A DNA stretch of 32,000 nucleotides, from contig NC_020304.1 in assembly GCF_000341395.1 (NCBI RefSeq), positions 2,040,001-2,072,000 of the forward strand, written 5' to 3'. Below are positions 3,845 through 26,725 of this stretch, piece after piece; the stretch's first letter is position 1, and each line of letters begins with the position of its first letter. The notes below the pieces were generated by a model. That model did no database searches, was not told the origin of the DNA, and saw nothing but the letters and a program-made list of their open reading frames with translations. This stretch comes from Desulfocapsa sulfexigens DSM 10523 (GTDB lineage: Bacteria; Desulfobacterota; Desulfobulbia; Desulfobulbales; Desulfocapsaceae). The translations under genes and the position numbers were made by a program.

Positions 3845-6172
3845 GTGATGATTTACGATAACGTTTTAGACGCCATTGGAAATACTCCGCTCATTAGGGT
3901 GAATCGTTTGAATTCTTCTGATGTTCCGGTCTATGCAAAACTCGAATCCAGTAATCCTGGCGGCTCTGTGAAAGAAAGAATCTCTCTGTCCCTGATTGAG
4001 GCTGGTGAGGCCAGTGGAGAGTTGAGTGCTGATAAGATAGTCCTTGAGGCAACCAGTGGTAATACCGGTATTGGGCTTGCCATGGTTTGTGCAGCAAAAG
4101 GATATCGTTGTCAGCTGGTCATGCCAGAATCCGCATCCCTGGAGCGAAGGCAGATTATGCAGGCCTATGGGGCTGAGATTCTTCTTACTCCTGCAAAAAG
4201 GAGTACGGACGGAGCCATAGAAAAAGCCTATGCGATGGCTCGTGAGCACCCTGATCGCTACTATCTTACAGATCAATTCAATAACGAAGCTAACTGGCGG
4301 GCTCATTATGACCACACTGCACCAGAAATCTGGCAACAGACAGATGGAAGGGTTACCCATGTAGTAGCAACACTTGGTACATCGGGCACTGTTATGGGGC
4401 TCTGTAAGTGGTTTGCTGAACATCATCCCGAAGTAGAGGTTGTTGCCGTAGAGCCATTCCTTGGGCATAAAATTCAGGGCCTTAAAAACATGAAAGAGTC
4501 TTATCGTCCTGGAATATTTGACAAATCTCTCCCGACAAGGATTGTGAACATTGAGGATGAAGATGCTTTTCGTATGGCAAGACTCCTTGCAAGGGAAGAG
4601 GGCTTGCTGGTTGGTATGAGTAGTGGTGCCGCAATGTTCTGCGCGCTTCAATTAGCGGGAGAACTGGATGACGGGTTTATCGTAACAATTATTCCGGATG
4701 GTGGTGAGCGCTATCTTTCAACACCCCTGTTTACACGAAAGAATAAGGTTACTGAGAAAAAAACTGATCTTTGTTTTTTTAATACACTCACCAAAAAGAA
4801 GGAAGAATTTCGTCCACAGAAGGAAAAATACGTCAGTTTCTATACCTGTGGACCGACCGCTTACGAACCTGCCAATCTTTCCCTTTGCAGGCGTTTTGTT
4901 GTTTCAGATCTTATTACCCGCTATCTGGAACACAAGGGTTATGAAGTGAATTCCTGTATGAACTTTACCGATCTCGATGATAATACAATACAGGGTGCGA
5001 ATAAGGCCGGTAAGTCACTTGGGGAATTCACCAGTAAGTATATTGATGGATTTATGGCGGATATCGATTCGCTCAGTATTAAGCGGGCTACTCATTACCC
5101 CAGGGCTTCCGAGCATGTTGCAGACATGATAGAAATCAGCCATGAGTTGCTCCATAAAGGGTTTGCCTATGAAAAGCATGGCTCTATTTATTTCGATATT
5201 TCCAAATTTAAGAAATATGGCCGCCTGTCAGGCATTGATCTTGGCAAGATTCAGCTGGGAAAAACAGTCGATCTTGATAATTATGAAAAGGATAATCCCC
5301 GTGATTTTACACTGCTGAAACGTTCAACCCTGGCAGAGTTGAAAAAGGGGATATTTTATGAGACTGATTGGGGAAATGTACGACCAGGATGGCATATTGA
5401 GTGTTCGGCAATGTCGACCAAATATCTTGGCGAAACCATGGATATACATACCTCCAGCCGTGATCTGATTTTCCCTCATCATGAAAATGAAATAGCCATT
5501 GCTGAAGCGCTGACGGGAAAGCAACTGGCCAGGTACTGGCTGCATTCGGAACTGTTGCTGGTTGACGGAAAAAAAATGTCAGTGGAAGCTGGAAATGTAG
5601 TGACCCTGAATGATGCCGTTCTGCGTGGTTTTACGCCACGGGATGTCCGTTTCATGCTGCTCTCAGTCCATTATCGGAAGCCGATTAATTTTTCTTTCCG
5701 ACGGCTGATCAACGTCCGAACTGCTCTACGCCGGATTGATGAGTTTACCTGTAAATTGCTTTGTCTGCCTCCTGGAAAACCTCACCCCGAAGTTGCTGCC
5801 TATGTTTCTGCAATGGAGGAACAGTTTTTTGCCGCCATGGATGATGATCTGAATGTTTCAAAGGGGATGGGGGCAATTTATAAGTTTATCAAGCGCACCA
5901 ATCCGATTCTTCATGTGAATCATCTGGATGGTGATCAAAAAAAATACATTCTCGAAAGTTTGGGAAAGATAAACGGAATCCTGCAAATTTTCCGTCTCAA
6001 AGGTTGTCCGCTTGCCCCTTCCGTGAATGCTATTATTAAGCGACGAGAGGAGGCGCGACAGGGGAAAGACTGGAAAGCTGCTGATGAGGCTCGTGATGAA
6101 CTCATTCGCCAGGGAATCCAGATTATTGATACAGCCACCGGGCCTGTATGGAAAAAGGTCGATGAGGAATGA
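3845..6172 (+). CDS. Fusion protein: cysteine synthase (CysK/CysM-like, PLP-dependent) joined to a cysteinyl-tRNA-synthetase-like module with degenerate HIGH and KMSKS motifs
   Basis: Single 775-aa ORF; the ATG at 3848 is the likely start. The N-terminal ~305 aa carry NPGGSVKER (PLP lysine), TSGNTG, GTSGT, SSGAA and GGERYLS. From about nt 4765 the sequence LCFFNTLTKKKEEF...YTCGPTAY...NFTDLDDN...PGWHIECSAM...FPHHENEIA...RREEARQGKDWKAADEARDEL...GPVWKK is colinear with CysRS. See findings. Confidence 0.85.
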   Translation: MMIYDNVLDAIGNTPLIRVNRLNSSDVPVYAKLESSNPGGSVKERISLSLIEAGEASGELSADKIVLEATSGNTGIGLAMVCAAKGYRCQLVMPESASLERRQIMQAYGAEILLTPAKRSTDGAIEKAYAMAREHPDRYYLTDQFNNEANWRAHYDHTAPEIWQQTDGRVTHVVATLGTSGTVMGLCKWFAEHHPEVEVVAVEPFLGHKIQGLKNMKESYRPGIFDKSLPTRIVNIEDEDAFRMARLLAREEGLLVGMSSGAAMFCALQLAGELDDGFIVTIIPDGGERYLSTPLFTRKNKVTEKKTDLCFFNTLTKKKEEFRPQKEKYVSFYTCGPTAYEPANLSLCRRFVVSDLITRYLEHKGYEVNSCMNFTDLDDNTIQGANKAGKSLGEFTSKYIDGFMADIDSLSIKRATHYPRASEHVADMIEISHELLHKGFAYEKHGSIYFDISKFKKYGRLSGIDLGKIQLGKTVDLDNYEKDNPRDFTLLKRSTLAELKKGIFYETDWGNVRPGWHIECSAMSTKYLGETMDIHTSSRDLIFPHHENEIAIAEALTGKQLARYWLHSELLLVDGKKMSVEAGNVVTLNDAVLRGFTPRDVRFMLLSVHYRKPINFSFRRLINVRTALRRIDEFTCKLLCLPPGKPHPEVAAYVSAMEEQFFAAMDDDLNVSKGMGAIYKFIKRTNPILHVNHLDGDQKKYILESLGKINGILQIFRLKGCPLAPSVNAIIKRREEARQGKDWKAADEARDELIRQGIQIIDTATGPVWKKVDEE

Positions 6173-18950: not shown

Positions 18951-19898
18951 ATGGGCATGTTTCAGAAATTACAGATCGGCGATAGCGTTACCCCGGAAAT
19001 CGATTGGGAAATGACACCGGACATGACTTTTGGAACATTTGAGTCCTGGGGTGGGCGTGAGCAGATGCGCAGCAGGATAAGTGGTACCGATCGGGTCTAC
19101 TATTTCTTTATTGATAATTGGGATGATGAGCCGAAACTCTGCCTTATGGAGCGTGGAGTAAAACACGCAAGAGTTGCAGCTGAGATCAGGGCTCCTGAGC
19201 AGATGCTTAAAAAATGTGTTGAAAATCATGGAACGTCGTCTCTTTTTGAGAAAAGTTATGCCATTAATGGTGAGATCAAAGAGTGGCTGATCGCCAATGT
19301 TCTTGAGTCAGAAGATACCTCTGCTGTTATTCCTCTTTATGATAAACCCGAGGTTGAGGATATGGGAGGGGCTTTGCCGCTTCTTTCTGAGTCAGGTTTT
19401 GCGGGAGAAAAAGTTGCGTTGCCGACGGAACACAGTTTTATCAATGATGATGAGCTTGCTCCTTTGATGAAGAAATGGAATTTCTACGACGGTGATCTGA
19501 ATGCAGAAGGAAACTTCGAAAATTTTCTCGTGGATCCAGGCGACAGGAGAGTGGTCGTTGACCAGCGAACCGGATTGATGTGGCAGCGAGGTGGGCTTGA
19601 TATAACCGCTGTGCGAAGTATGAAACGCAAAATAGAGCAGTTAAATAAAGATGGTTATGCAGGATTCCATGACTGGCGGATGCCAACCATGGAAGAGGCC
19701 ATGTCTATCATGAATAAAGAGGTAAACAGTAAGGATATTCACCTGGAGCTCTGTTTTTCCAAGGAGCAGCCTTTTATCTTTGTCGATGCCCAGCGCAGGC
19801 CAGGTGGCTACTGGTATGTGGATTATAAGCATGGTCGTGCCTTCTGGTCCTCCGGAACCATTCCCGGTGGCTTTGCAAGACTTTGTCGTAGCATGTAG
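18951..19898 (+). CDS. DUF1566 (Lcl C-terminal-like) domain protein with an unrecognised N-terminal half
   Basis: AAAGGAG lies 6 nt upstream of the ATG. The C-terminal half has TGLMWQRG ... GFHDWRMPTMEEAMSIM, matching the DUF1566 signature. I see no signal peptide. Confidence 0.6.
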   Translation: MGMFQKLQIGDSVTPEIDWEMTPDMTFGTFESWGGREQMRSRISGTDRVYYFFIDNWDDEPKLCLMERGVKHARVAAEIRAPEQMLKKCVENHGTSSLFEKSYAINGEIKEWLIANVLESEDTSAVIPLYDKPEVEDMGGALPLLSESGFAGEKVALPTEHSFINDDELAPLMKKWNFYDGDLNAEGNFENFLVDPGDRRVVVDQRTGLMWQRGGLDITAVRSMKRKIEQLNKDGYAGFHDWRMPTMEEAMSIMNKEVNSKDIHLELCFSKEQPFIFVDAQRRPGGYWYVDYKHGRAFWSSGTIPGGFARLCRSM

Positions 19899-19922
19899 TT
19901 TTTTTTCTTTCCTCCTCCTGAG

Positions 19923-19961
19923 TACCCGAAAGAGAGTTATCTTTTTCGGGTATTTTTTTTT
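19923..19961 (+). terminator. Rho-independent terminator after the DUF1566 gene
   Basis: TACCCGAAA (19923-19931) pairs with TTTCGGGTA (19944-19952), followed by T9. Confidence 0.75.
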
Positions 19962-19971
19962 GCAAAAAGTA

Positions 19972-20028
19972 AATGTACATTGACATGTGAGGATGATTTG
20001 CTGTATTGGTGTTATGTGAATGTACATT
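19972..20028 (+). promoter_or_regulatory. lexA-operon promoter bracketed by two AATGTACATT palindromes (candidate LexA operators)
   Basis: Perfect 10-bp palindromes at 19972-19981 and 20019-20028. TTGACA at 19980-19985, a 16-nt spacer, then TGTATT at 20002-20007. Box 1 overlaps the -35. Box 2 lies just downstream of the -10. Confidence 0.45.
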
Positions 20029-20049
20029 TGTCGTGAGCGAGGAAAATAT

Positions 20050-20673
20050 ATGGATCTTACAGAAAAGCAACAGCAACTTTTTGACTATTTACAGGAATAT
20101 CTTGAGCGGGAAGGACGGGCACCCAGCTTGCGCCAGTCTGCCGAAAGTCTGGGTGTAAGTCATAATGCCGTGGCGCAGTTAATCACTCAGCTGGAACGGA
20201 AAGGGGTCGTTGAGCGGGAGGGTCGCTACAGCAGAACCATCCGTATTTTATCTCCACACACTGCAGCAAAAGCGAAGATGCGGGTACGGGAATTGCCGAT
20301 TGTAGGAAGGGTTACGGCAGGGTTGCCCATGTACGCCCAGCAGGAATGGGATGGTTCCGTGGTGGTTGATGGAAATCTGTTTCCCGGTAATAATCTTTTT
20401 TGTCTGCGGGTGCAGGGTGAGTCCATGCAGGATGCGGGCATATTAAATGGTGATCTGGTTGTCTGCGAACCCCGGCAGTATGCAGAGAATGGAGAGATTG
20501 TCGCTGTTCTCATTCAGGGGGAAGAGGCCACGGTGAAACGGTTCTTTCTTGGAAGGGATCATATCGAGTTGCGACCGGAGAATAAAAAATTCACTGCCGT
20601 CCGTTATCCCTTTTCCGAAATTCTGGTGCAGGGAAAGGTTATGGGTGTGATCAGAAGCTATGACAAAAGATAA
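20050..20673 (+). CDS. lexA: LexA repressor (S24 peptidase)
   Basis: The start at ATG 20050 has GAGGAA upstream. Winged-HTH N-terminus (SLRQSAESLGVSHNAVAQLITQLERKG), cleavage-site region GRVTAGLP, catalytic Ser in QGESM and Lys in TVKRF. Confidence 0.9.
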   Translation: MDLTEKQQQLFDYLQEYLEREGRAPSLRQSAESLGVSHNAVAQLITQLERKGVVEREGRYSRTIRILSPHTAAKAKMRVRELPIVGRVTAGLPMYAQQEWDGSVVVDGNLFPGNNLFCLRVQGESMQDAGILNGDLVVCEPRQYAENGEIVAVLIQGEEATVKRFFLGRDHIELRPENKKFTAVRYPFSEILVQGKVMGVIRSYDKR

Positions 20674-21454
20674 GTTGTGCCCGGTGCTCATCGGCACCAG
20701 TGGGTATTCCTATACCGAGTGGGTGGATAGTGGTTTTTATCCACAGGGTACAAGAACCCCAGGAATGCTGGAGCTTTATGCAGATGTATTTCCCATTGTT
20801 GAACTGAATTACACCTGGTACCAGATGGTGCGCGCAGAAGCCATCAGCCGTATGATTGCAAAGGCTCCCGAGAGCTTTTTGTTTGCTGCCAAACTGACAA
20901 GGACACTTACTCACGAAAGAAATCGTGACTGGCAACAGGAACTGAAGCAGTATCGTGAGGGGATTCAGCCTCTGCGCAAGCAACTGACAGCGATTCTGGT
21001 TCAGTTGCCGCCTGATTTTGATTGGAGCAGAAGTAATCGCTATTATTTGGCTCATCTGCTCGATGCTTTGCGTGGCTTTCCCCTCGCAGTTGAATTTCGT
21101 CACGTCTCCTGGGCAAGAGATTCGGTGTTTGCAGAGCTTGAGAAGAGGCGTGTGACCATAGTTACCGTAGATTCCCCGTCAGAGCCAAATCTTTTTCCCT
21201 GTCTGGATATTGTTACTAACCCTGATCTCTTTTTTGTCCGTTTTCATGGGCGCAACAGGCAGGGATGGAAATCTGCTAATATGCAGAAGAAATTTGACTA
21301 CTCCTATTCCAGGGAGGAACTGGAAGAGTGGAATGAAAAATATTTGACTTCGTTGCGTGCCAATGCCGAGCTGGGTGTTGTCTTCTTCAATAACCATGTT
21401 CGTGCCCAGGCACCAGAAAATGGCAGGCTTTTACAGACTCTTTTGCAGAACTGA
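20660..21454 (+). CDS. DUF72 (YecE / UPF0759) family protein
   Basis: LIGTSGYSYTEWVDSGFYP, FPIVELNYTWY, LAVEFRHVSW, FVRFHGRN and VFFNNH are the remembered DUF72 blocks. The ATG overlaps the lexA 3' end by 14 nt. Confidence 0.85.
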   Translation: MTKDKLCPVLIGTSGYSYTEWVDSGFYPQGTRTPGMLELYADVFPIVELNYTWYQMVRAEAISRMIAKAPESFLFAAKLTRTLTHERNRDWQQELKQYREGIQPLRKQLTAILVQLPPDFDWSRSNRYYLAHLLDALRGFPLAVEFRHVSWARDSVFAELEKRRVTIVTVDSPSEPNLFPCLDIVTNPDLFFVRFHGRNRQGWKSANMQKKFDYSYSREELEEWNEKYLTSLRANAELGVVFFNNHVRAQAPENGRLLQTLLQN

Positions 21455-21460
21455 AAGGAA

Positions 21461-22633
21461 ATGGATAGAGCCATTATTCATTTGAATGTCACTGATTTTG
21501 CAGTGGCAGTGGAACGGATTCGGGATAGTTCCTTGAGGCAGGTCCCCTTGATTGTTGCGACCGGAGAGGCTGGAAAAGGAAGAACCCTTGTCTTTGATAT
21601 GAGTGAGGAAGCATATCAGGAGGGAGTGCGCAAGGGCATGCAGTTGAACCTTGCTCGTAAGTACTGCAACAGGGCAAAGGTCATTACCCCCTGTCCCGCT
21701 TTGTATCGCAGAGCTATGGCAGCTCTTGTTAAACGGGTGGCCTACTATACTCCCCTGGTGGAGCAGGGAGAAGAGGATGGCCATCTGTTTCTTGATGTCA
21801 CCGGGACACATCGGCTCTTCGGGCCGGCCCCTGATGTGGCCTGGAGACTTCGTAAACAGCTGCTGGATGAGTTGGGGCTTGATCCTGTCTGGAGTCTTGC
21901 TTCTAATAAACTGGTTTCCAAGGTTGCTTCAAGAGTGGTACGACCTTTTGGTGAGTATATTGTGAGCGTGGGTGAGGAAGATACATTTCTGGCACCCCTG
22001 CCGCTGTCCATGTTGCCAGGGGTAACTGCTGAGGAGATACGGCTTCTGGAGGATTTTAACGTAAGGCGGATTGGTCAACTTGCAGAACTCAGCAGGAAGC
22101 AACTTCTGGTGGTTTCCAGGACGCGTAACGGGGTTCTCCATGATGCCAGTCGGGGCCGGGACATTACAGCGGTTCTTCCCGGGATAACAAAGGATGATCA
22201 AATAACAGAGGAGCATGTTTTTGAAGAAGATACGGCAAGATACGGGGAGGTGCAGGCGGTCCTTACCCAGCTTGTTCACGGGATAGCAAGAGTCCTGCGG
22301 CAGAGACGCCTTCTTGGACAGCGCGTGGGGATCTGTCTGGTCTATGGAGATGGAAAAAAAACATCCAGGCAGGTGTCCAGGAAAGGAGGGTCTGATAGTG
22401 ATTTCATCCTGCGCAGGATGGCTCTTACAGCCCTAGACAGGGCCTGGGGGAGGCGCATTCGGATCCGTAGTTGTGTTTTGATTTGTGATCGTCTGCTGCC
22501 ACGTACCCAACAGCAGACGCTTTTTGTCATGCAGAGCGAGCGGGAACAGCAGGAGGAAAAAATTATGAGTGCCATGGATATGGTGCGCAGTCGTTTTGGT
22601 GCTGGACGGCTATACCTGGGGACTAGCTCCTAG
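21461..22633 (+). CDS. imuB: ImuB-type catalytically inactive Y-family polymerase homolog
   Basis: The Y-family N-terminus is colinear with DinB, but IHVDMDCF reads IHLNVTDF and the SLDE catalytic pair reads DGH, so the catalytic acidic residues are missing as in ImuB. It sits directly upstream of dnaE2. Confidence 0.8.
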   Translation: MDRAIIHLNVTDFAVAVERIRDSSLRQVPLIVATGEAGKGRTLVFDMSEEAYQEGVRKGMQLNLARKYCNRAKVITPCPALYRRAMAALVKRVAYYTPLVEQGEEDGHLFLDVTGTHRLFGPAPDVAWRLRKQLLDELGLDPVWSLASNKLVSKVASRVVRPFGEYIVSVGEEDTFLAPLPLSMLPGVTAEEIRLLEDFNVRRIGQLAELSRKQLLVVSRTRNGVLHDASRGRDITAVLPGITKDDQITEEHVFEEDTARYGEVQAVLTQLVHGIARVLRQRRLLGQRVGICLVYGDGKKTSRQVSRKGGSDSDFILRRMALTALDRAWGRRIRIRSCVLICDRLLPRTQQQTLFVMQSEREQQEEKIMSAMDMVRSRFGAGRLYLGTSS

Positions 22634-22636
22634 GCC

Positions 22637-25633
22637 GTGTTCCCTCTTTTTGTCCGTTCTTACTATTCGTTTATGCGTGGTTGCAGTTCTCCAGCAAGTA
22701 TCTGCAAACGTGCTCAGGAGCTTGGCTACACCGTTCTGGCACTCACCGATTGTGATTCACTCGCCGGGGTCTGGCCCTTTCTTGCCGCCTGTAAAAAATA
22801 TGGTATTCGTCCTCTTATTGCTGCAGAAATCAGTGACCGAAAGAATTCCGATACGGTTATCTGTCTGGTACGTAATGCTATCGGTTATAGGAATTTATGC
22901 AATTTAATAACCAGGAGAAAAGGAGATCCTCTTTTCACCCTGGAACAGAATCTTATACAATATAGTGATGGCCTTATCTGTATCGCTTCCTCGCGTCCTC
23001 TCCTGGAAAAGCTTCAAAAGAATACTATAGACCTGGCTGTAAACCTTGGTGACAGGCCGACGGAAAAATCCAGTTATTTGAGGAAATGGGCGCAAAAAAA
23101 AAGTGTTTCCGCCGTGGCCATCCCTATTGTGTTTATGGCAGATAAAAAAGAGAGATTGCTCCTGCAGCTCATGAGGGCGATAGAGACCAAAAGCCTCCTG
23201 ACATCATGTGAGGTGAAGTCGGGACTACCATCGTGCTGGTTGCAATCTCCTGCAACGTATTATGAAAAATTTGCGGTGTGGCCCGAAGCATTAACAGAAG
23301 CTGAGAATCTTGCGAGACGCTGCAGCTTTTCCGGCCCGCCATCAGACCTGGTCATGCCTCCCTGGAACAGAAGTGGGAGAGGGGCAGCTTTTTCACTCCG
23401 ACAGGCCGCTTATGAGGGGGCCTGTGTTCGCTATGGGACAGATCTTTCCGAGGCTGTGGTTGAGCGATTGGAGATGGAGCTTCGAGTGATTGATTCCATG
23501 GGCTTTTCTTCCTATTTTCTCGTTGTCCGCGATATCGTACATCAGGCTGTTGGAGAAAGAAGTGGCCGCTGCTTACGCATATGCGGTCGTGGGTCAGGTG
23601 CAGCTTCACTTGTGGCCTACTGTCTTGAAATTACCAATGTCTGTCCTTTAAAGTACAATCTTTATTTTGAACGATTTCTTAACCCAGGTCGTACTGATCC
23701 TCCTGATATTGACATTGATTTTTCATGGGATGAACGGGATGGAGTGCTTGCGCAGGTTCTCCGGAAATATGGGCATAATGCCGCCATGGTCTCAACTATT
23801 ATCCGCTTCCAGCCCCGAATGGCTATTCGGGAAACAGCAAGGGCGTTTGGGTTGCCAGCAGAGGAAATTGCAAAGACAGGTAACCTCAGCAGATTACCGG
23901 GTGCAGGGACCAAAAAGCTTGTGGCACCATGGCCTGAAATTATGGAACTTGCTTCTTCTTTACTGGGTGTGCCGCGTCACCTGTCAGTTCATCCAGGAGG
24001 GGTCATTATAACACCGGAACCTGTAAGCAATTATGTCCCGGTTGAGACTGCTTCCAAGGGGGTCCCTATCATCCAGTGGGATAAGGATGGAGCAGAGGCG
24101 GGAGGACTCGTGAAGATCGACCTGCTTGGTAATCGCAGTCTTGGGGTGATCAGGGATTGTATTGCATCCCTTTCAGAGAGTGGTCGAAGTTTTGATGAAG
24201 AGTACTGGCAGCCTGAGGATGACCCGGCAACGAAAATGGCAGTAGCAGCGGGAGAGACCATGGGGTGCTTTTATATAGAAAGTCCGGCCATGCGTCTGTT
24301 GCAACAGAAGGCGGGAAGCGGGGACTTTGAGCAGCTTGTGCTGCAGTCTTCTATCATTCGTCCTGCTGCCAATGATTTTATACGTGAATATGTGCGCCGT
24401 CTTCACGGGGGGGCGTGGCAGTATCTACATCCGGAATTGGCAACAGTGCTTGATGAGACCTTTGGTCTTATGGTGTATCAGGAGGATGTGTCGAGGGTAG
24501 CTGTTGCCCTTGCGGGCTTCAGTCATGCACGCGCAGATTGCCTGCGTAAAGTGATGTCTAAAAAAGATAAGCAGCTGCGTTTAAAAGATTATCGGCTTGA
24601 ATTTGAAAGGGGATGTGAAGCTAGAGGTGTCGACAGGGAAACAATTGAAAAACTCTGGGACATGATGATGAGTTTTGATGGGTATTCGTTCTGTAAACCG
24701 CATTCGGCTTCCTATGCACGGGTGTCGTATCAGGCTGCATACCTGAAGACACATCATCCAGCGGAATTTATGGCAGCGGTAATTTCCAATCAAGGAGGCT
24801 ATTACTCAACATTTGCCTATGTTTCAGAAGCAAAACGAATGGGGATAGGCATATTGCCTCCCTGCGTGAATCACAGTCAGGTAAGATGGTGTAGAGAGGG
24901 AGATGTATCGGTAAAAAATATCCGGGTGGGATTGATGGCTGTGAAGAATTTGTCAACGGCCACCATGGGCAGGATCTTGTATTGCAGAGAGAAAAAAGAA
25001 TTCGTTTCAAGTATTGATTTCTGGCAACGTGTCCAGCCGCAAAAGGATGAATGCAGATCGCTTATCCAGGCTGGTGCACTGGATGCGCTTGGTAGTAAAA
25101 ATAAAAGAAATAGAAGCAATCTGTTTTGGGAACTTGCTCAGTTCAGGTGTTTTGCAGGGGCACAGGCGAGAAGCCCTCTTTTCTGCCTGGATTTACCTCC
25201 GGCTCCAGATCTTCCATCGTTTAATGTGAGGGAAATACAGCAGCAGGAGTATGATGCACTGGATTTCCTTTGCAGCTCCCATCCACTGCTTTTCTATGAA
25301 CAACAGCTCAATGGGAGGATAAAAGGCTGTGATCTGAAGAGCTATGCTGGAAAGAATATCCGCTTTGCCGGATGGTTGCTCAGCAGAAAGATGGTTTCAA
25401 CAAAAACCGGAGAGGTAATGGAATTTCTAACCTTTGAGGACGAAACAGGGGTAGTGGAAACAACATTTTTTCCACGAGTCTATCGTCGCTATGCAGCAAT
25501 TCTGAATCCAGGACAGGCCTATATGTTACTGGGAAAGGTAGAAGAAGAATATGGCGCGGTGACCCTGACGGTAGCCGGAGTGGAGAAACTCGGATCAGTT
25601 TTTGTTCGAGGTGCGCTGCAGGTCGGCGATTAA
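22637..25633 (+). CDS. dnaE2: Error-prone DNA polymerase III alpha paralog DnaE2 (ImuC)
   Basis: 998 aa, with a PHP-like N-terminus (SYYSFMRGCS...LALTDCDSLAG) and Pol III alpha core blocks (DIDIDF, HPGGVII, FYIESPAMR, QEDV, FCKPHSASYA). The GTG start is 3 nt after the imuB stop. Confidence 0.85.
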   Translation: MFPLFVRSYYSFMRGCSSPASICKRAQELGYTVLALTDCDSLAGVWPFLAACKKYGIRPLIAAEISDRKNSDTVICLVRNAIGYRNLCNLITRRKGDPLFTLEQNLIQYSDGLICIASSRPLLEKLQKNTIDLAVNLGDRPTEKSSYLRKWAQKKSVSAVAIPIVFMADKKERLLLQLMRAIETKSLLTSCEVKSGLPSCWLQSPATYYEKFAVWPEALTEAENLARRCSFSGPPSDLVMPPWNRSGRGAAFSLRQAAYEGACVRYGTDLSEAVVERLEMELRVIDSMGFSSYFLVVRDIVHQAVGERSGRCLRICGRGSGAASLVAYCLEITNVCPLKYNLYFERFLNPGRTDPPDIDIDFSWDERDGVLAQVLRKYGHNAAMVSTIIRFQPRMAIRETARAFGLPAEEIAKTGNLSRLPGAGTKKLVAPWPEIMELASSLLGVPRHLSVHPGGVIITPEPVSNYVPVETASKGVPIIQWDKDGAEAGGLVKIDLLGNRSLGVIRDCIASLSESGRSFDEEYWQPEDDPATKMAVAAGETMGCFYIESPAMRLLQQKAGSGDFEQLVLQSSIIRPAANDFIREYVRRLHGGAWQYLHPELATVLDETFGLMVYQEDVSRVAVALAGFSHARADCLRKVMSKKDKQLRLKDYRLEFERGCEARGVDRETIEKLWDMMMSFDGYSFCKPHSASYARVSYQAAYLKTHHPAEFMAAVISNQGGYYSTFAYVSEAKRMGIGILPPCVNHSQVRWCREGDVSVKNIRVGLMAVKNLSTATMGRILYCREKKEFVSSIDFWQRVQPQKDECRSLIQAGALDALGSKNKRNRSNLFWELAQFRCFAGAQARSPLFCLDLPPAPDLPSFNVREIQQQEYDALDFLCSSHPLLFYEQQLNGRIKGCDLKSYAGKNIRFAGWLLSRKMVSTKTGEVMEFLTFEDETGVVETTFFPRVYRRYAAILNPGQAYMLLGKVEEEYGAVTLTVAGVEKLGSVFVRGALQVGD

Positions 25634-26725
25634 CTCGATATCACCACCCATGACCTCTCTCTCTCTGGTCATGGCAACCTTTTTCTGAAACCCGTAGGTT
25701 ACCAATTGTTTAATGTCGGACCACATGGTCTCACTGCCCATGATAGCTACAATAATCTCATCTTTTCCACGCTTGAACTTCCCCACATACGTCTGCCGGG
25801 CTGCATTGGTGTAGCCGGTTTTTCCACCCAGCGTGCCCTCTACCTGCCACAGGGCTTTATTATGACTACGAAGAAGCTTTCCTTCCGTGGTGCGTGTTTT
25901 CAACTGCTTCATCCTGGTGGAAAATTCAGGATCATTCATGGCATGACGGAAAATAGTTGCGAGGTCACGGGCGGTGGATTTCTGCCCCTTTGCAGTGAGA
26001 CCCGTAGCAGTTTTGCAGATGGTGTTTTTTGCTCCCCACAGTTTGGCTCGAAGGGTCATCATTGCAGCAAAATCTTTTTCATTTCCGGCAATTTTTTCAG
26101 CGAGTGCCACACTGGCATCATTGGCTGAAGCAAGCAGAACAGCGTTAATCAGATCATTTGCCTGATACTTCTTTTTCTGATCGAGGTATACCTTGGAGCG
26201 GGGCTGTCTTGCAGCTTTTTGACTGACCGAAACAGGTTCTGCCATGGTCAGGGATTTCATGGCGATCATTCCTGTGAGTACTTTGATGGTAGAAGCCGGT
26301 TGTCTCTGACTGTCAGGATTCCTGGAGTACAGTGTTTCTCCACTCACGGCATCAATGATGATGGCTGACCTGGATGAGATTTTTTTATTGAGTCGTTTGG
26401 TGGTAGCTGCGGTAACAGGGGGGGCAATTCGTTTTTTGATATGAAGAATATTATTAACCTGACCGAGACTGATCGGAGTGGATTTAGTGACAGTTGCTTC
26501 TGTGCGTGGAGAGGGTTGAGCGATCTTTTCTGTCTGCTTTGCAGGTTCTGGAACAGATGTGGCTACCTGCCACTTTGCTGTATCGTTGAGGAGAGGGAGC
26601 TCCGCCCGAGACTCCGCGTTGCTCGTAAAGAGCAGAACAAGAAGACAGAATACGAAAAAAACAGGAGTAGAATGTAATATCTTGTGCATGGTGCTGTATG
26701 GGGAGGTTCTGTTTAAAGTTAGCAT
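25595..26725 (-). CDS. D-alanyl-D-alanine carboxypeptidase (S11, PBP5/6-like)
   Basis: SxxK (ASTIKVLT), SxN (SAND) and KTG (KTGYT) motifs plus a signal peptide. The start could be 26725 or the ATG at 26689 (MHKILHSTPVFFVFCLL...). Confidence 0.85.
   Translation of the reverse strand: MLTLNRTSPYSTMHKILHSTPVFFVFCLLVLLFTSNAESRAELPLLNDTAKWQVATSVPEPAKQTEKIAQPSPRTEATVTKSTPISLGQVNNILHIKKRIAPPVTAATTKRLNKKISSRSAIIIDAVSGETLYSRNPDSQRQPASTIKVLTGMIAMKSLTMAEPVSVSQKAARQPRSKVYLDQKKKYQANDLINAVLLASANDASVALAEKIAGNEKDFAAMMTLRAKLWGAKNTICKTATGLTAKGQKSTARDLATIFRHAMNDPEFSTRMKQLKTRTTEGKLLRSHNKALWQVEGTLGGKTGYTNAARQTYVGKFKRGKDEIIVAIMGSETMWSDIKQLVTYGFQKKVAMTREREVMGGDIELIADLQRTSNKN

Follow-up and report, generated by a model that had tools for sequence, protein, structure and literature searches.

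A 32,000-nucleotide (nt) stretch of the Desulfocapsa sulfexigens DSM 10523 genome (contig NC_020304.1, positions 2,040,001 to 2,072,000; referred to here as the window) carries four closely packed genes on one strand, which encode, in this order, the repressor LexA, a DUF72 protein, a predicted inactive Y-family DNA polymerase (iPolY) and the C-family polymerase DnaE2. We favour, with some reserve, the reading that this unit is a LexA-repressed DnaE2B-iPolY cassette that would use RecA and to which a DUF72 DNA-processing enzyme has been added. The parts of this reading differ in strength. Judged from the comparisons given below, the polymerase genes very likely form a DnaE2B-iPolY(-RecA) module and not an ImuABC cassette minus imuA, and DUF72 is probably SOS-regulated and damage-related, while its assignment as a nuclease or phosphodiesterase in particular is tentative. 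The initial annotation of this DNA had described an SOS mutagenesis cassette with DUF72 in the imuA slot, and had proposed that DUF72 is either an accessory factor of the mutasome or a damage-processing nuclease. Its argument that synteny and coupling give DUF72 a functional context was borne out, the context being the SOS response and DNA damage. The SOS part of its proposal is supported by widespread synteny, tight gene junctions and a conserved operator, whereas the mutasome or ImuA-like role is not supported, and of the two alternatives the damage-processing nuclease is the better reading.

Layout and promoter of the cassette

The four genes occupy the forward-strand open reading frames (ORFs) 20020-20673, 20660-21454, 21461-22633 and 22637-25633. 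They correspond to lexA (20050-20673, 207 amino acids (aa)), the DUF72 gene (20660-21454, 264 aa; a PF01904 TIM-barrel protein with a TM1631-like fold), the iPolY gene (21461-22633, 390 aa; gbDinB2-like, with IMS and IMS_C domains) and dnaE2 (22637-25633, 998 aa; DnaE2B-like, with a GTG start and PHP, DNA_pol3_alpha, finger, HHH_6 and OB domains). The junction sequences agree with the compact arrangement described initially. The DUF72 ATG at 20660 precedes the lexA stop codon (TAA, 20671-20673), giving a 14-nt overlap; the DUF72 stop codon (TGA, 21452-21454) is separated from the iPolY ATG at 21461 by the 6 nt AAGGAA (21455-21460); and the iPolY stop codon (TAG, 22631-22633) is followed by gcc and the dnaE2 GTG at 22637, a 3-nt gap. 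The 6-nt gap was thus as reported, but the purine stretch within it is too close to the start codon to act as the proposed Shine-Dalgarno sequence. Because AAGGAA ends 1 nt before the ATG, translation of iPolY is more likely to be coupled to that of DUF72 by re-initiation than to begin at a normal Shine-Dalgarno site.

The first product scored 177 bits against the LexA model TIGR00498 (cut-off, 110.95) and contains LexA_DNA_bind and Peptidase_S24 domains; the Ala90-Gly91 cleavage site, Ser125 and Lys163 can be read from its sequence. The ATG at 20050 is more likely to be the lexA start than the ATG at 20020, because AGGA (20040-20043) lies 6 nt upstream of the former and homologues align from residue 1. 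The ATG at 20020 falls within the second of two palindromes that had been noticed in the promoter region. These palindromes were confirmed as exact copies of AATGTACATT at 19972 and 20019, with no others in the window. The first candidate LexA box (19969-19986, plus strand) includes AATGTACATT at 19972-19981 and an ATGT-N6-ACAT element at 19973-19986, and overlaps a TTGACA -35 hexamer at 19980-19985. The second (ATGTGAATGTACATTT; 20014-20029, plus strand) lies 21 nt upstream of the likely lexA start.

The same elements recur in the orthologous lexA promoters of close relatives, where AAATGTACATTGACAT lies over the -35 hexamer and AATGTA-N4-TACATT lies near the start. Of the AATGTACATT copies in the loci compared, 19 lay in the 150 nt preceding lexA and a single one in all other sequence (~968 kb), and the operator motif was enriched ~1800-fold upstream of lexA in related loci. 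Each of 19 related loci has exactly one copy of the 16-bp palindrome AATGTA-N4-TACATT, and in every one it lies shortly before lexA. Since a LexA equivalog is encoded and the promoter contains two conserved, enriched operators, we read the cassette as LexA/SOS-controlled. We infer that LexA binds the two ATGT-N6-ACAT-type operators, which overlap the promoter, and represses the cassette; upon DNA damage, RecA-stimulated self-cleavage of LexA would then yield one transcript for LexA, DUF72, iPolY and DnaE2. A by-product of this comparison is a candidate LexA operator for Desulfobulbales, AATGTA-N4-TACATT with the core ATGT-N6-ACAT, for which no match to a published LexA motif was found. In distant Desulfobacterales promoters (loci L079, L065, L077, L056 and L057), the operator is replaced by TTTACAT direct repeats spaced 11-12 bp around TTGACA, an arrangement that is unusual for a dimeric repressor.

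The cassette is insulated from upstream read-through by the intrinsic terminator of the preceding gene (18951-19898). This inverted repeat (19920-19963, plus strand) consists of a 16-pair stem at 19920-19955, with 5 G-C pairs, followed by a T run, in agreement with the strong terminator noted at first.

Identity of the polymerase module

The initial annotation had called the Y-family protein ImuB and had noted the loss of its catalytic acidic residues. The loss is evident from an alignment with Escherichia coli DinB, in which N9, T11 and H108 take the places of D8, D10 and E104, while D103 may survive as D106; asparagine in place of the first catalytic carboxylate is conserved across the iPolY clade. 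The name ImuB, in contrast, does not fit. In BLASTP, gbDinB2-like proteins matched with 182 and 132 bits, compared with 36 and 30 bits for the ImuB1 proteins of Caulobacter and Pseudomonas, and the window protein ends at residue 390 without an ImuB-C domain; these scores and this early end rule out an identification as ImuB. Nitrospira japonica and Citrifermentans bremense provided the reference sequences for gbDinB2-like proteins and DnaE2B, which come from the supplement of a published polymerase survey. The iPolY aligned end to end with the Nitrospira and Citrifermentans gbDinB2-like proteins at 29-34% identity. It has a QxxLF-type clamp motif, QQTLF, at 351-355, in which Q351, L354 and F355 are invariant among the window, Desulfobulbales, Nitrospira and Citrifermentans proteins. 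A putative RecA-NT-like motif follows at approximately 366-388, 3 residues before the end of the protein; D373, G380 and G387 are shared without exception by the aligned gbDinB2-like proteins for which a RecA-NT motif has been published. Residues 366-388 also matched positions 1-23 of DUF4113, at E = 0.0087 with the tail alone and E = 0.2 with the whole protein, both of which are sub-threshold in Pfam.

In comparisons of the N-terminal 420 aa of DnaE2, three DnaE2B proteins gave scores of 239, 202 and 187 bits, and two DnaE2A proteins gave 147 and 134 bits. The models NF004225 and NF004226 gave 583 and 609 bits, below their cut-offs of 939 and 1002. By these scores the window DnaE2 is closer to DnaE2B than to DnaE2A. 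All polymerase domains are present and the aspartate motifs PDIDIDF and KIDLLG can be read from the translation, so that the polymerase adjoining iPolY looks catalytically competent. The aspartates of the two motifs are presumably those of E. coli DnaE D401, D403 and D555. As had been observed, the PHP N-terminus lacks its usual histidines: the H-x-H motif is missing, and the window has PLFVRS where the Geobacter-type DnaE2B has HLHAHS. This absence is unremarkable, because canonical DnaE2A also has degenerate versions of the motif (ELHCLS, ELQATT). The idea that DUF72 compensates for a dead PHP domain was dropped, since the DUF72-free DnaE2B of Geobacter and Nitrospira already lacks other PHP ligands (the Asp of SxxDG and the His of TDH); two Desulfobacterota loci without DUF72 (L064 and L079) have the same degenerate motif as the window.

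Pfam scans of the 25 window ORFs detected no RecA/SulA-like protein, in line with the initial statement that an ImuA ORF is missing, and tblastn with Pseudomonas aeruginosa ImuA gave no match in the window or in 134 loci, which is a weak test given the divergence of ImuA. DnaE2B polymerases are known from genomes without imuA and imuB, where they are partnered by inactive PolYs with clamp and RecA-NT motifs; DinB2 of Geobacter bemidjiensis is the type member of one such group (hence gbDinB2-like), and RecA is the presumed third subunit (PMC6511836; PMC12926913). The iPolY and DnaE2 scores, the end-to-end alignment and the shared motifs therefore argue for a DnaE2B-iPolY(-RecA) module in the window. 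Like the published module (Timinskas and Venclovas, Nucleic Acids Research 2019, PMC6511836; Nucleic Acids Research 2026, PMC12926913), the window has a lexA-linked inactive PolY followed by DnaE2, with a QxxLF clamp motif and, putatively, a RecA-NT-like motif at the C-terminus of the PolY, and has neither ImuB-C nor imuA. It differs in the extra DUF72 gene between lexA and iPolY, and the window clade differs in the loss of the DnaE2 H-x-H motif. Neither the main texts of the two papers nor the supplements of PMC12926913 that were examined mention DUF72.

With the canonical LexA-regulated imuA-imuB-dnaE2 cassette (ImuABC), the window unit appears to share SOS control, a dead Y-family adaptor with an active DnaE2, and the order of regulator, accessory gene, Y-family protein and DnaE2. 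The canonical cassette is mobile as a unit, and the window-type cassette is likewise found on a plasmid, Do28_1. The window unit is unlike ImuABC in that ImuA is absent, the Y-family protein is not ImuB and the polymerase is nearer to DnaE2B; its second gene encodes a TIM-barrel enzyme where ImuABC has a RecA/SulA-like ATPase. In the mechanism that we propose, the catalytically dead iPolY would serve as an adaptor that uses QQTLF to bind the beta clamp and, very probably, its C-terminal RecA-NT-like motif to bind RecA, and would bring the active DnaE2 to lesions or gaps. RecA, whose participation is predicted from the motif, would thus be the third partner in place of ImuA. Genes annotated in these genomes as 'imuB', 'DNA polymerase III alpha' or 'hypothetical protein' would in fact encode a DnaE2B-iPolY mutasome. 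The literature searched yielded no paper on dnaE2 and lexA in Desulfotalea.

Distribution, loss and movement of DUF72

DUF72 homologues with 65-98% identity were abundant in Desulfocapsa-like organisms, and the order lexA-DUF72-IMS-DnaE2 was repeated in three genomes looked up. An iPolY alignment was then compared with GTDB species genomes, and the best 80 of at least 457 confirmed loci were sorted by tblastn and ORF tracing. Judged by record title, nearly all of the 80 belong to Desulfobulbales, Desulfobacterales or related Desulfobacterota metagenome-assembled genomes (MAGs), with a few generic Proteobacteria labels; cultured carriers include Desulfosarcina ovata, Desulfogranum japonicum, D. 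marinum and Desulfoprunum benzoelyticum. Two loci were uninformative. DUF72 lay between lexA and iPolY in 71 of the other 78, as a full-length gene directly upstream of iPolY in 66 (61 with a complete lexA in front) and as a gene cut by a contig end in 5. It was decayed in three loci (L041, with a 109-aa internal-deletion remnant, L047 and L049), lexA abutted iPolY without DUF72 in another three (L064, L079 and L087), and a single locus (L080) had neither lexA nor DUF72. The rest of the operon was intact in L041, L047, L064, L079 and L087, while dnaE2 was also disrupted in L049. The gap between lexA and DUF72 had a median of 18 nt, and 22 of 65 junctions overlapped or abutted (gap ≤0 nt). The synteny is therefore not unique to one genome and extends over two orders.

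The outgroup came from a metagenome scan seeded with Geobacter and Nitrospira proteins, and comprised 47 loci weighted to Geobacter-like sequences; the records carry no taxonomy, and one locus encodes a protein 98% identical to a Citrifermentans protein. The outgroup iPolYs were 29-43% identical to the window iPolY. The order lexA-iPolY-dnaE2 was found in all loci with enough sequence, and DUF72 in none of the 47. Within the best-scoring loci and this Geobacter-like outgroup, the edge of DUF72 presence would fall somewhere between ~40% and ~35% iPolY identity. Because the outgroup modules are complete without DUF72, the gene appears to have been added within a single Desulfobacterota branch to a module already complete in itself. 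The ancestor shared by Desulfobulbales and Desulfobacterales would have acquired it between lexA and iPolY, or it would have spread among them by transfer. The claim that DUF72 fills the imuA slot could not be maintained: lexA directly abuts iPolY in the outgroup, with neither ImuA nor DUF72 between them, so that there is no slot to fill, and several Desulfobacterota have lost DUF72 and kept lexA-iPolY-dnaE2.

The cassette has also been split and moved. In Desulfogranum japonicum (L082) and a related MAG (L084), a 3.7-kb insert on the opposite strand (3317-6703 in L082), encoding TrkH, TrkA and one unassigned protein, separates lexA-DUF72 from iPolY-dnaE2. The DUF72 gene remains on the lexA side, and the operator motif is present in each half; iPolY-dnaE2 has acquired or kept its own motif copies. 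In Desulfosarcina ovata, a full lexA-DUF72-iPolY-dnaE2 cassette is located on the 136-kb MOBQ mobilizable plasmid Do28_1 (L135, NZ_AP021877.1, 6304-12079), with traA and an IS200/IS605 transposase gene as neighbours. Its promoter has related TACAT repeats around TTGACA and TATAAT, and PGAP labels its iPolY 'hypothetical protein' and its DnaE2 'DNA polymerase III subunit alpha'.

Outside this cassette, DUF72 is enriched in PolB2 translesion operons of archaea and bacteria, often together with SRAP and LexA (119 neighbourhoods; PMC11791011, 2025), as in the operon SRAP-DUF72-iRadA-PPB2-PolB2 (PMC11791011). These too are damage-inducible, often LexA-linked error-prone polymerase operons in which an inactivated RecA/RadA-type or adaptor partner is present. 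DUF72 is enriched in them but not universal, and their components are the B-family PolB2 with iRadA and PPB2, whereas the window has the C-family DnaE2 with iPolY and no SRAP gene.

This association with PolB2 operons, independent of the one described here, argues against the view that DUF72 is a passenger, namely an enzyme that does not act on DNA (for example, one of small-molecule metabolism) and that was inserted once after lexA and inherited without a functional tie to the polymerases. If it were, the cassette would be an ordinary lineage-specific operon variant. Such a view would suit an insertion that is limited to one clade and may reflect a single event, the lack of a detectable DNA-repair family in the DUF72 sequence, and the occurrence of most DUF72 genes elsewhere without an obvious repair context. 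It would also suit the entry of other selfish or unrelated genes into the operon: besides trkAH in L082 and L084, a putative AbrB-type antitoxin and PIN-domain toxin pair, read from the sequence, lies between DUF72 and iPolY in L072 (3871-4511), and individual lineages have short ORFs within the operon (L031, 6604-6855; L054, 8270-8497; L065, 8326-8667). The position of DUF72, however, has been kept across two orders and down to 40% iPolY identity, and in the 49 loci with all four genes DUF72 was more conserved than iPolY in every case and more conserved than DnaE2 in 47. In many lineages the DUF72 start still overlaps lexA, the gene travels with the cassette on the plasmid, and it remains under the operator when parted from the polymerases. 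We therefore regard the passenger explanation as unlikely.

Another explanation is that DUF72 is a stoichiometric mutasome subunit in the role of ImuA, acting as a scaffold or regulator of iPolY-DnaE2. Identities to the window proteins co-vary across the four genes (r = 0.93-0.96 in the same 49 loci), and the co-divergence of DUF72 with iPolY and DnaE2 (r = 0.95-0.96) would agree with a subunit, as would its place in the order, which is that of imuA in lexA-imuA-imuB-dnaE2, the coupled junctions, and its retention when the cassette moves on a plasmid. A subunit of this kind is nevertheless difficult to reconcile with the deletion or pseudogenisation of DUF72 in six Desulfobacterota loci, five of which have intact iPolY-dnaE2, and with the 47-locus outgroup, in which the same module has no gene between lexA and iPolY. 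The putative RecA-NT-like motif of iPolY points to RecA as the partner (PMC6511836), DUF72 goes with lexA and not with the polymerases in the split cassettes, and the protein has a full, enzyme-like set of invariant residues and no RecA/SulA fold. The imuA slot was rejected because DUF72 is dispensable, stays with lexA upon splitting and resembles an enzyme more than a RecA-like scaffold, and a subunit role is accordingly improbable. As a whole, the gene appears to be translationally coupled to lexA and strongly conserved, and yet dispensable for the module.

Possible activity of DUF72

DUF72 (YecE/TM1631) is a large and structurally solved family. The window protein matched PF01904 with E = 3e-57 (194.6 bits; cut-off, 25.3) and TM1631 (PDB 1vpq) with E = 2e-39; it is not the YecE equivalog (NF007637, 44.6 bits; cut-off, 412). 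Its AlphaFold2 model (mean predicted local distance difference test score 88) had a TM-score of 0.82 to 1vpq and ~0.8 to three DUF72 crystal structures. Invariant among the cassette copies are GTSGYS, VELN, K78, Q115, E145-F-R-H, D171, H196-G-R-N and N244-N-H246, of which K78 aligns with Lys73 of Tm1631, a residue proposed to be a general base. The Thermotoga study mentioned in the initial annotation was described correctly there: docking and molecular dynamics predict endonuclease-IV-like DNA binding by Tm1631 (PMC3828134). It was followed by a quantum mechanics/molecular mechanics study, and the crystal structure shows no metal (PMC4939058). The 2025 analysis of PolB2 operons states that DUF72 is similar to UVDE (PMC11791011). 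Like UVDE and endonuclease IV, DUF72 is a TIM barrel of ~260-290 residues with conserved acidic, His and Lys residues at the strand ends, and the incision of damaged DNA performed by these enzymes has been proposed for DUF72 also (PMC3828134; PMC11791011). Unlike them, it shows no detectable sequence relation to the two families, and its fold matches that of an endonuclease IV family member no better than it matches unrelated TIM barrels.

On the reading that we favour, DUF72 would be an SOS-induced accessory enzyme acting upstream of, or parallel to, translesion synthesis. It might be a metal-dependent phosphodiesterase on damaged DNA that incises lesions or cleans blocked ends, and would thereby make or prepare 3'-OH or gap substrates for filling by DnaE2. 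DnaE2 is reported to fill excision-repair gaps in non-replicating Caulobacter (PMC8102061). Because DUF72 is tied to a second error-prone polymerase operon and DnaE2 fills excision gaps, incision or end cleaning is the most economical mechanism. Next to the PolB2 operons (PMC11791011), the cassette would be a second error-prone polymerase system, unrelated to the first in mechanism, in which DUF72 is kept under an SOS operator, and the tie of DUF72 to the SOS response holds across two orders, on a plasmid and in a split operon. This convergence turns a vague prediction of DNA binding into a testable hypothesis, that of damage-induced incision or end processing that feeds a translesion polymerase. 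More speculatively, and with the odds rather against it, DUF72 may represent a new family of SOS-induced DNA-lesion or end-processing enzymes that was recruited independently by the PolB2-iRadA-PPB2 systems of archaea and bacteria and the DnaE2B-iPolY-RecA systems of Desulfobacterota, to make or clean the substrates for their polymerases. If that were true, the YecE/TM1631 family of bacteria, archaea, giant viruses and phages would supply a missing DNA-repair activity.

Several results weigh against this reading. DUF72 seems to have been inserted in what was essentially a single evolutionary event, so that part of the synteny is a matter of inheritance, and the losses show that the polymerase module can do without the gene. 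In the sample of plasmid-borne DUF72 genes, most had no recognisable repair context, and E. coli yecE appears in the literature searched as a phage insertion site only. The same literature gave no experimental function for DUF72/YecE, in keeping with the initial annotation, and the proposal of a nuclease derives from docking and molecular dynamics (PMC3828134; PMC4939058) and from the stated similarity to UVDE (PMC11791011). Our structure comparison with endonuclease IV upheld the TIM barrel and gave weak specific similarity: beyond DUF72 structures, Foldseek returned generic TIM barrels only (TM-score ≤0.51, the value for MbnB), the African swine fever virus apurinic/apyrimidinic (AP) endonuclease 6khy, of the endonuclease IV family, reached a TM-score of 0.47 (E = 1.4e-3), and UVDE was outside the top 50 matches of the model. 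Pfam searches of 34 DUF72 proteins showed no UvdE or AP_endonuc_2 signal up to E = 10. A profile of the cassette DUF72 proteins likewise found neither family among PDB sequences; weak matches to AP endonucleases were obtained in BFVD.

It is quite improbable that DUF72 acts instead on nucleotides or RNA, for instance by sanitising or altering the nucleotide pool during the SOS response and so changing incorporation by DnaE2: the Tm1631 site matched mostly nucleotide and phosphate sites, with a Tyr/His/Arg/Glu/Arg phosphate pattern (PMC3828134), the E-F-R-H and H-G-R-N motifs would suit phosphate binding, and the similarity to DNA endonucleases is weak, but no nucleotide-hydrolase family was detected in the Pfam search of the 34 DUF72 proteins, nucleotides could not be docked into Tm1631 without clashes whereas bent DNA could (PMC3828134), and the association with SRAP, an abasic-site sensor, in PolB2 operons suggests DNA lesions (PMC11791011).

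Further DUF72 genes were encountered in other settings. On a Deinococcus taeanensis plasmid (L141, 4986-10210), DUF72 lies 1.5 kb from a SRAP fragment and a gene for a 771-aa 'ribonuclease H-like domain' protein; this neighbourhood may be of the PolB2 type described in PMC11791011. Distant DUF72 genes (~30% identity) lie beside or near 'phosphoadenosine phosphosulfate reductase family' genes on a Rhodanobacter plasmid (L136), on pBN4 of Paraburkholderia aromaticivorans (L139) and on a P. sprentiae plasmid (L137/L138), where DUF72 is close to a small DNA ligase gene and a solitary imuA. These proteobacterial plasmids are possibly another DNA-related setting for DUF72. In further cases the genes next to DUF72 were unrelated. 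A scan of viral contigs with a DUF72 alignment gave 75 pattern matches, 0 of which were confirmed by tblastn, and PADLOC reported no defence-system match for DUF72 or iPolY. Matches in BFVD placed DUF72 proteins in the giant viruses Edafosvirus, Pithovirus, Hyperionvirus and Marseillevirus, and the only match in PHROGs was the unannotated phage family phrog_9933.

With regard to the surroundings of the cassette, the 3' end of dnaE2 overlaps by 39 nt (25595-25633) a convergent gene for a D-Ala-D-Ala carboxypeptidase (Peptidase_S11; 25595-26725, minus strand), with no terminator between the two genes. This carboxypeptidase gene followed by that of an AMP-binding enzyme is syntenic downstream of the cassette in L001, L003 and L005. 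The upstream gene at 18951-19898 (plus strand), which the terminator cuts off from the cassette, encodes an N-terminal DVU0772-family domain and a C-terminal Lcl_C domain and has no evident link with the cassette. Elsewhere in the window, a single 775-aa ORF (3845-6172, plus strand) combines a cysteine-synthase-like PALP domain (residues 8-285) with a complete class I cysteinyl-tRNA synthetase (residues 322-760), and would be a fusion of cysteine synthase and cysteinyl-tRNA synthetase.

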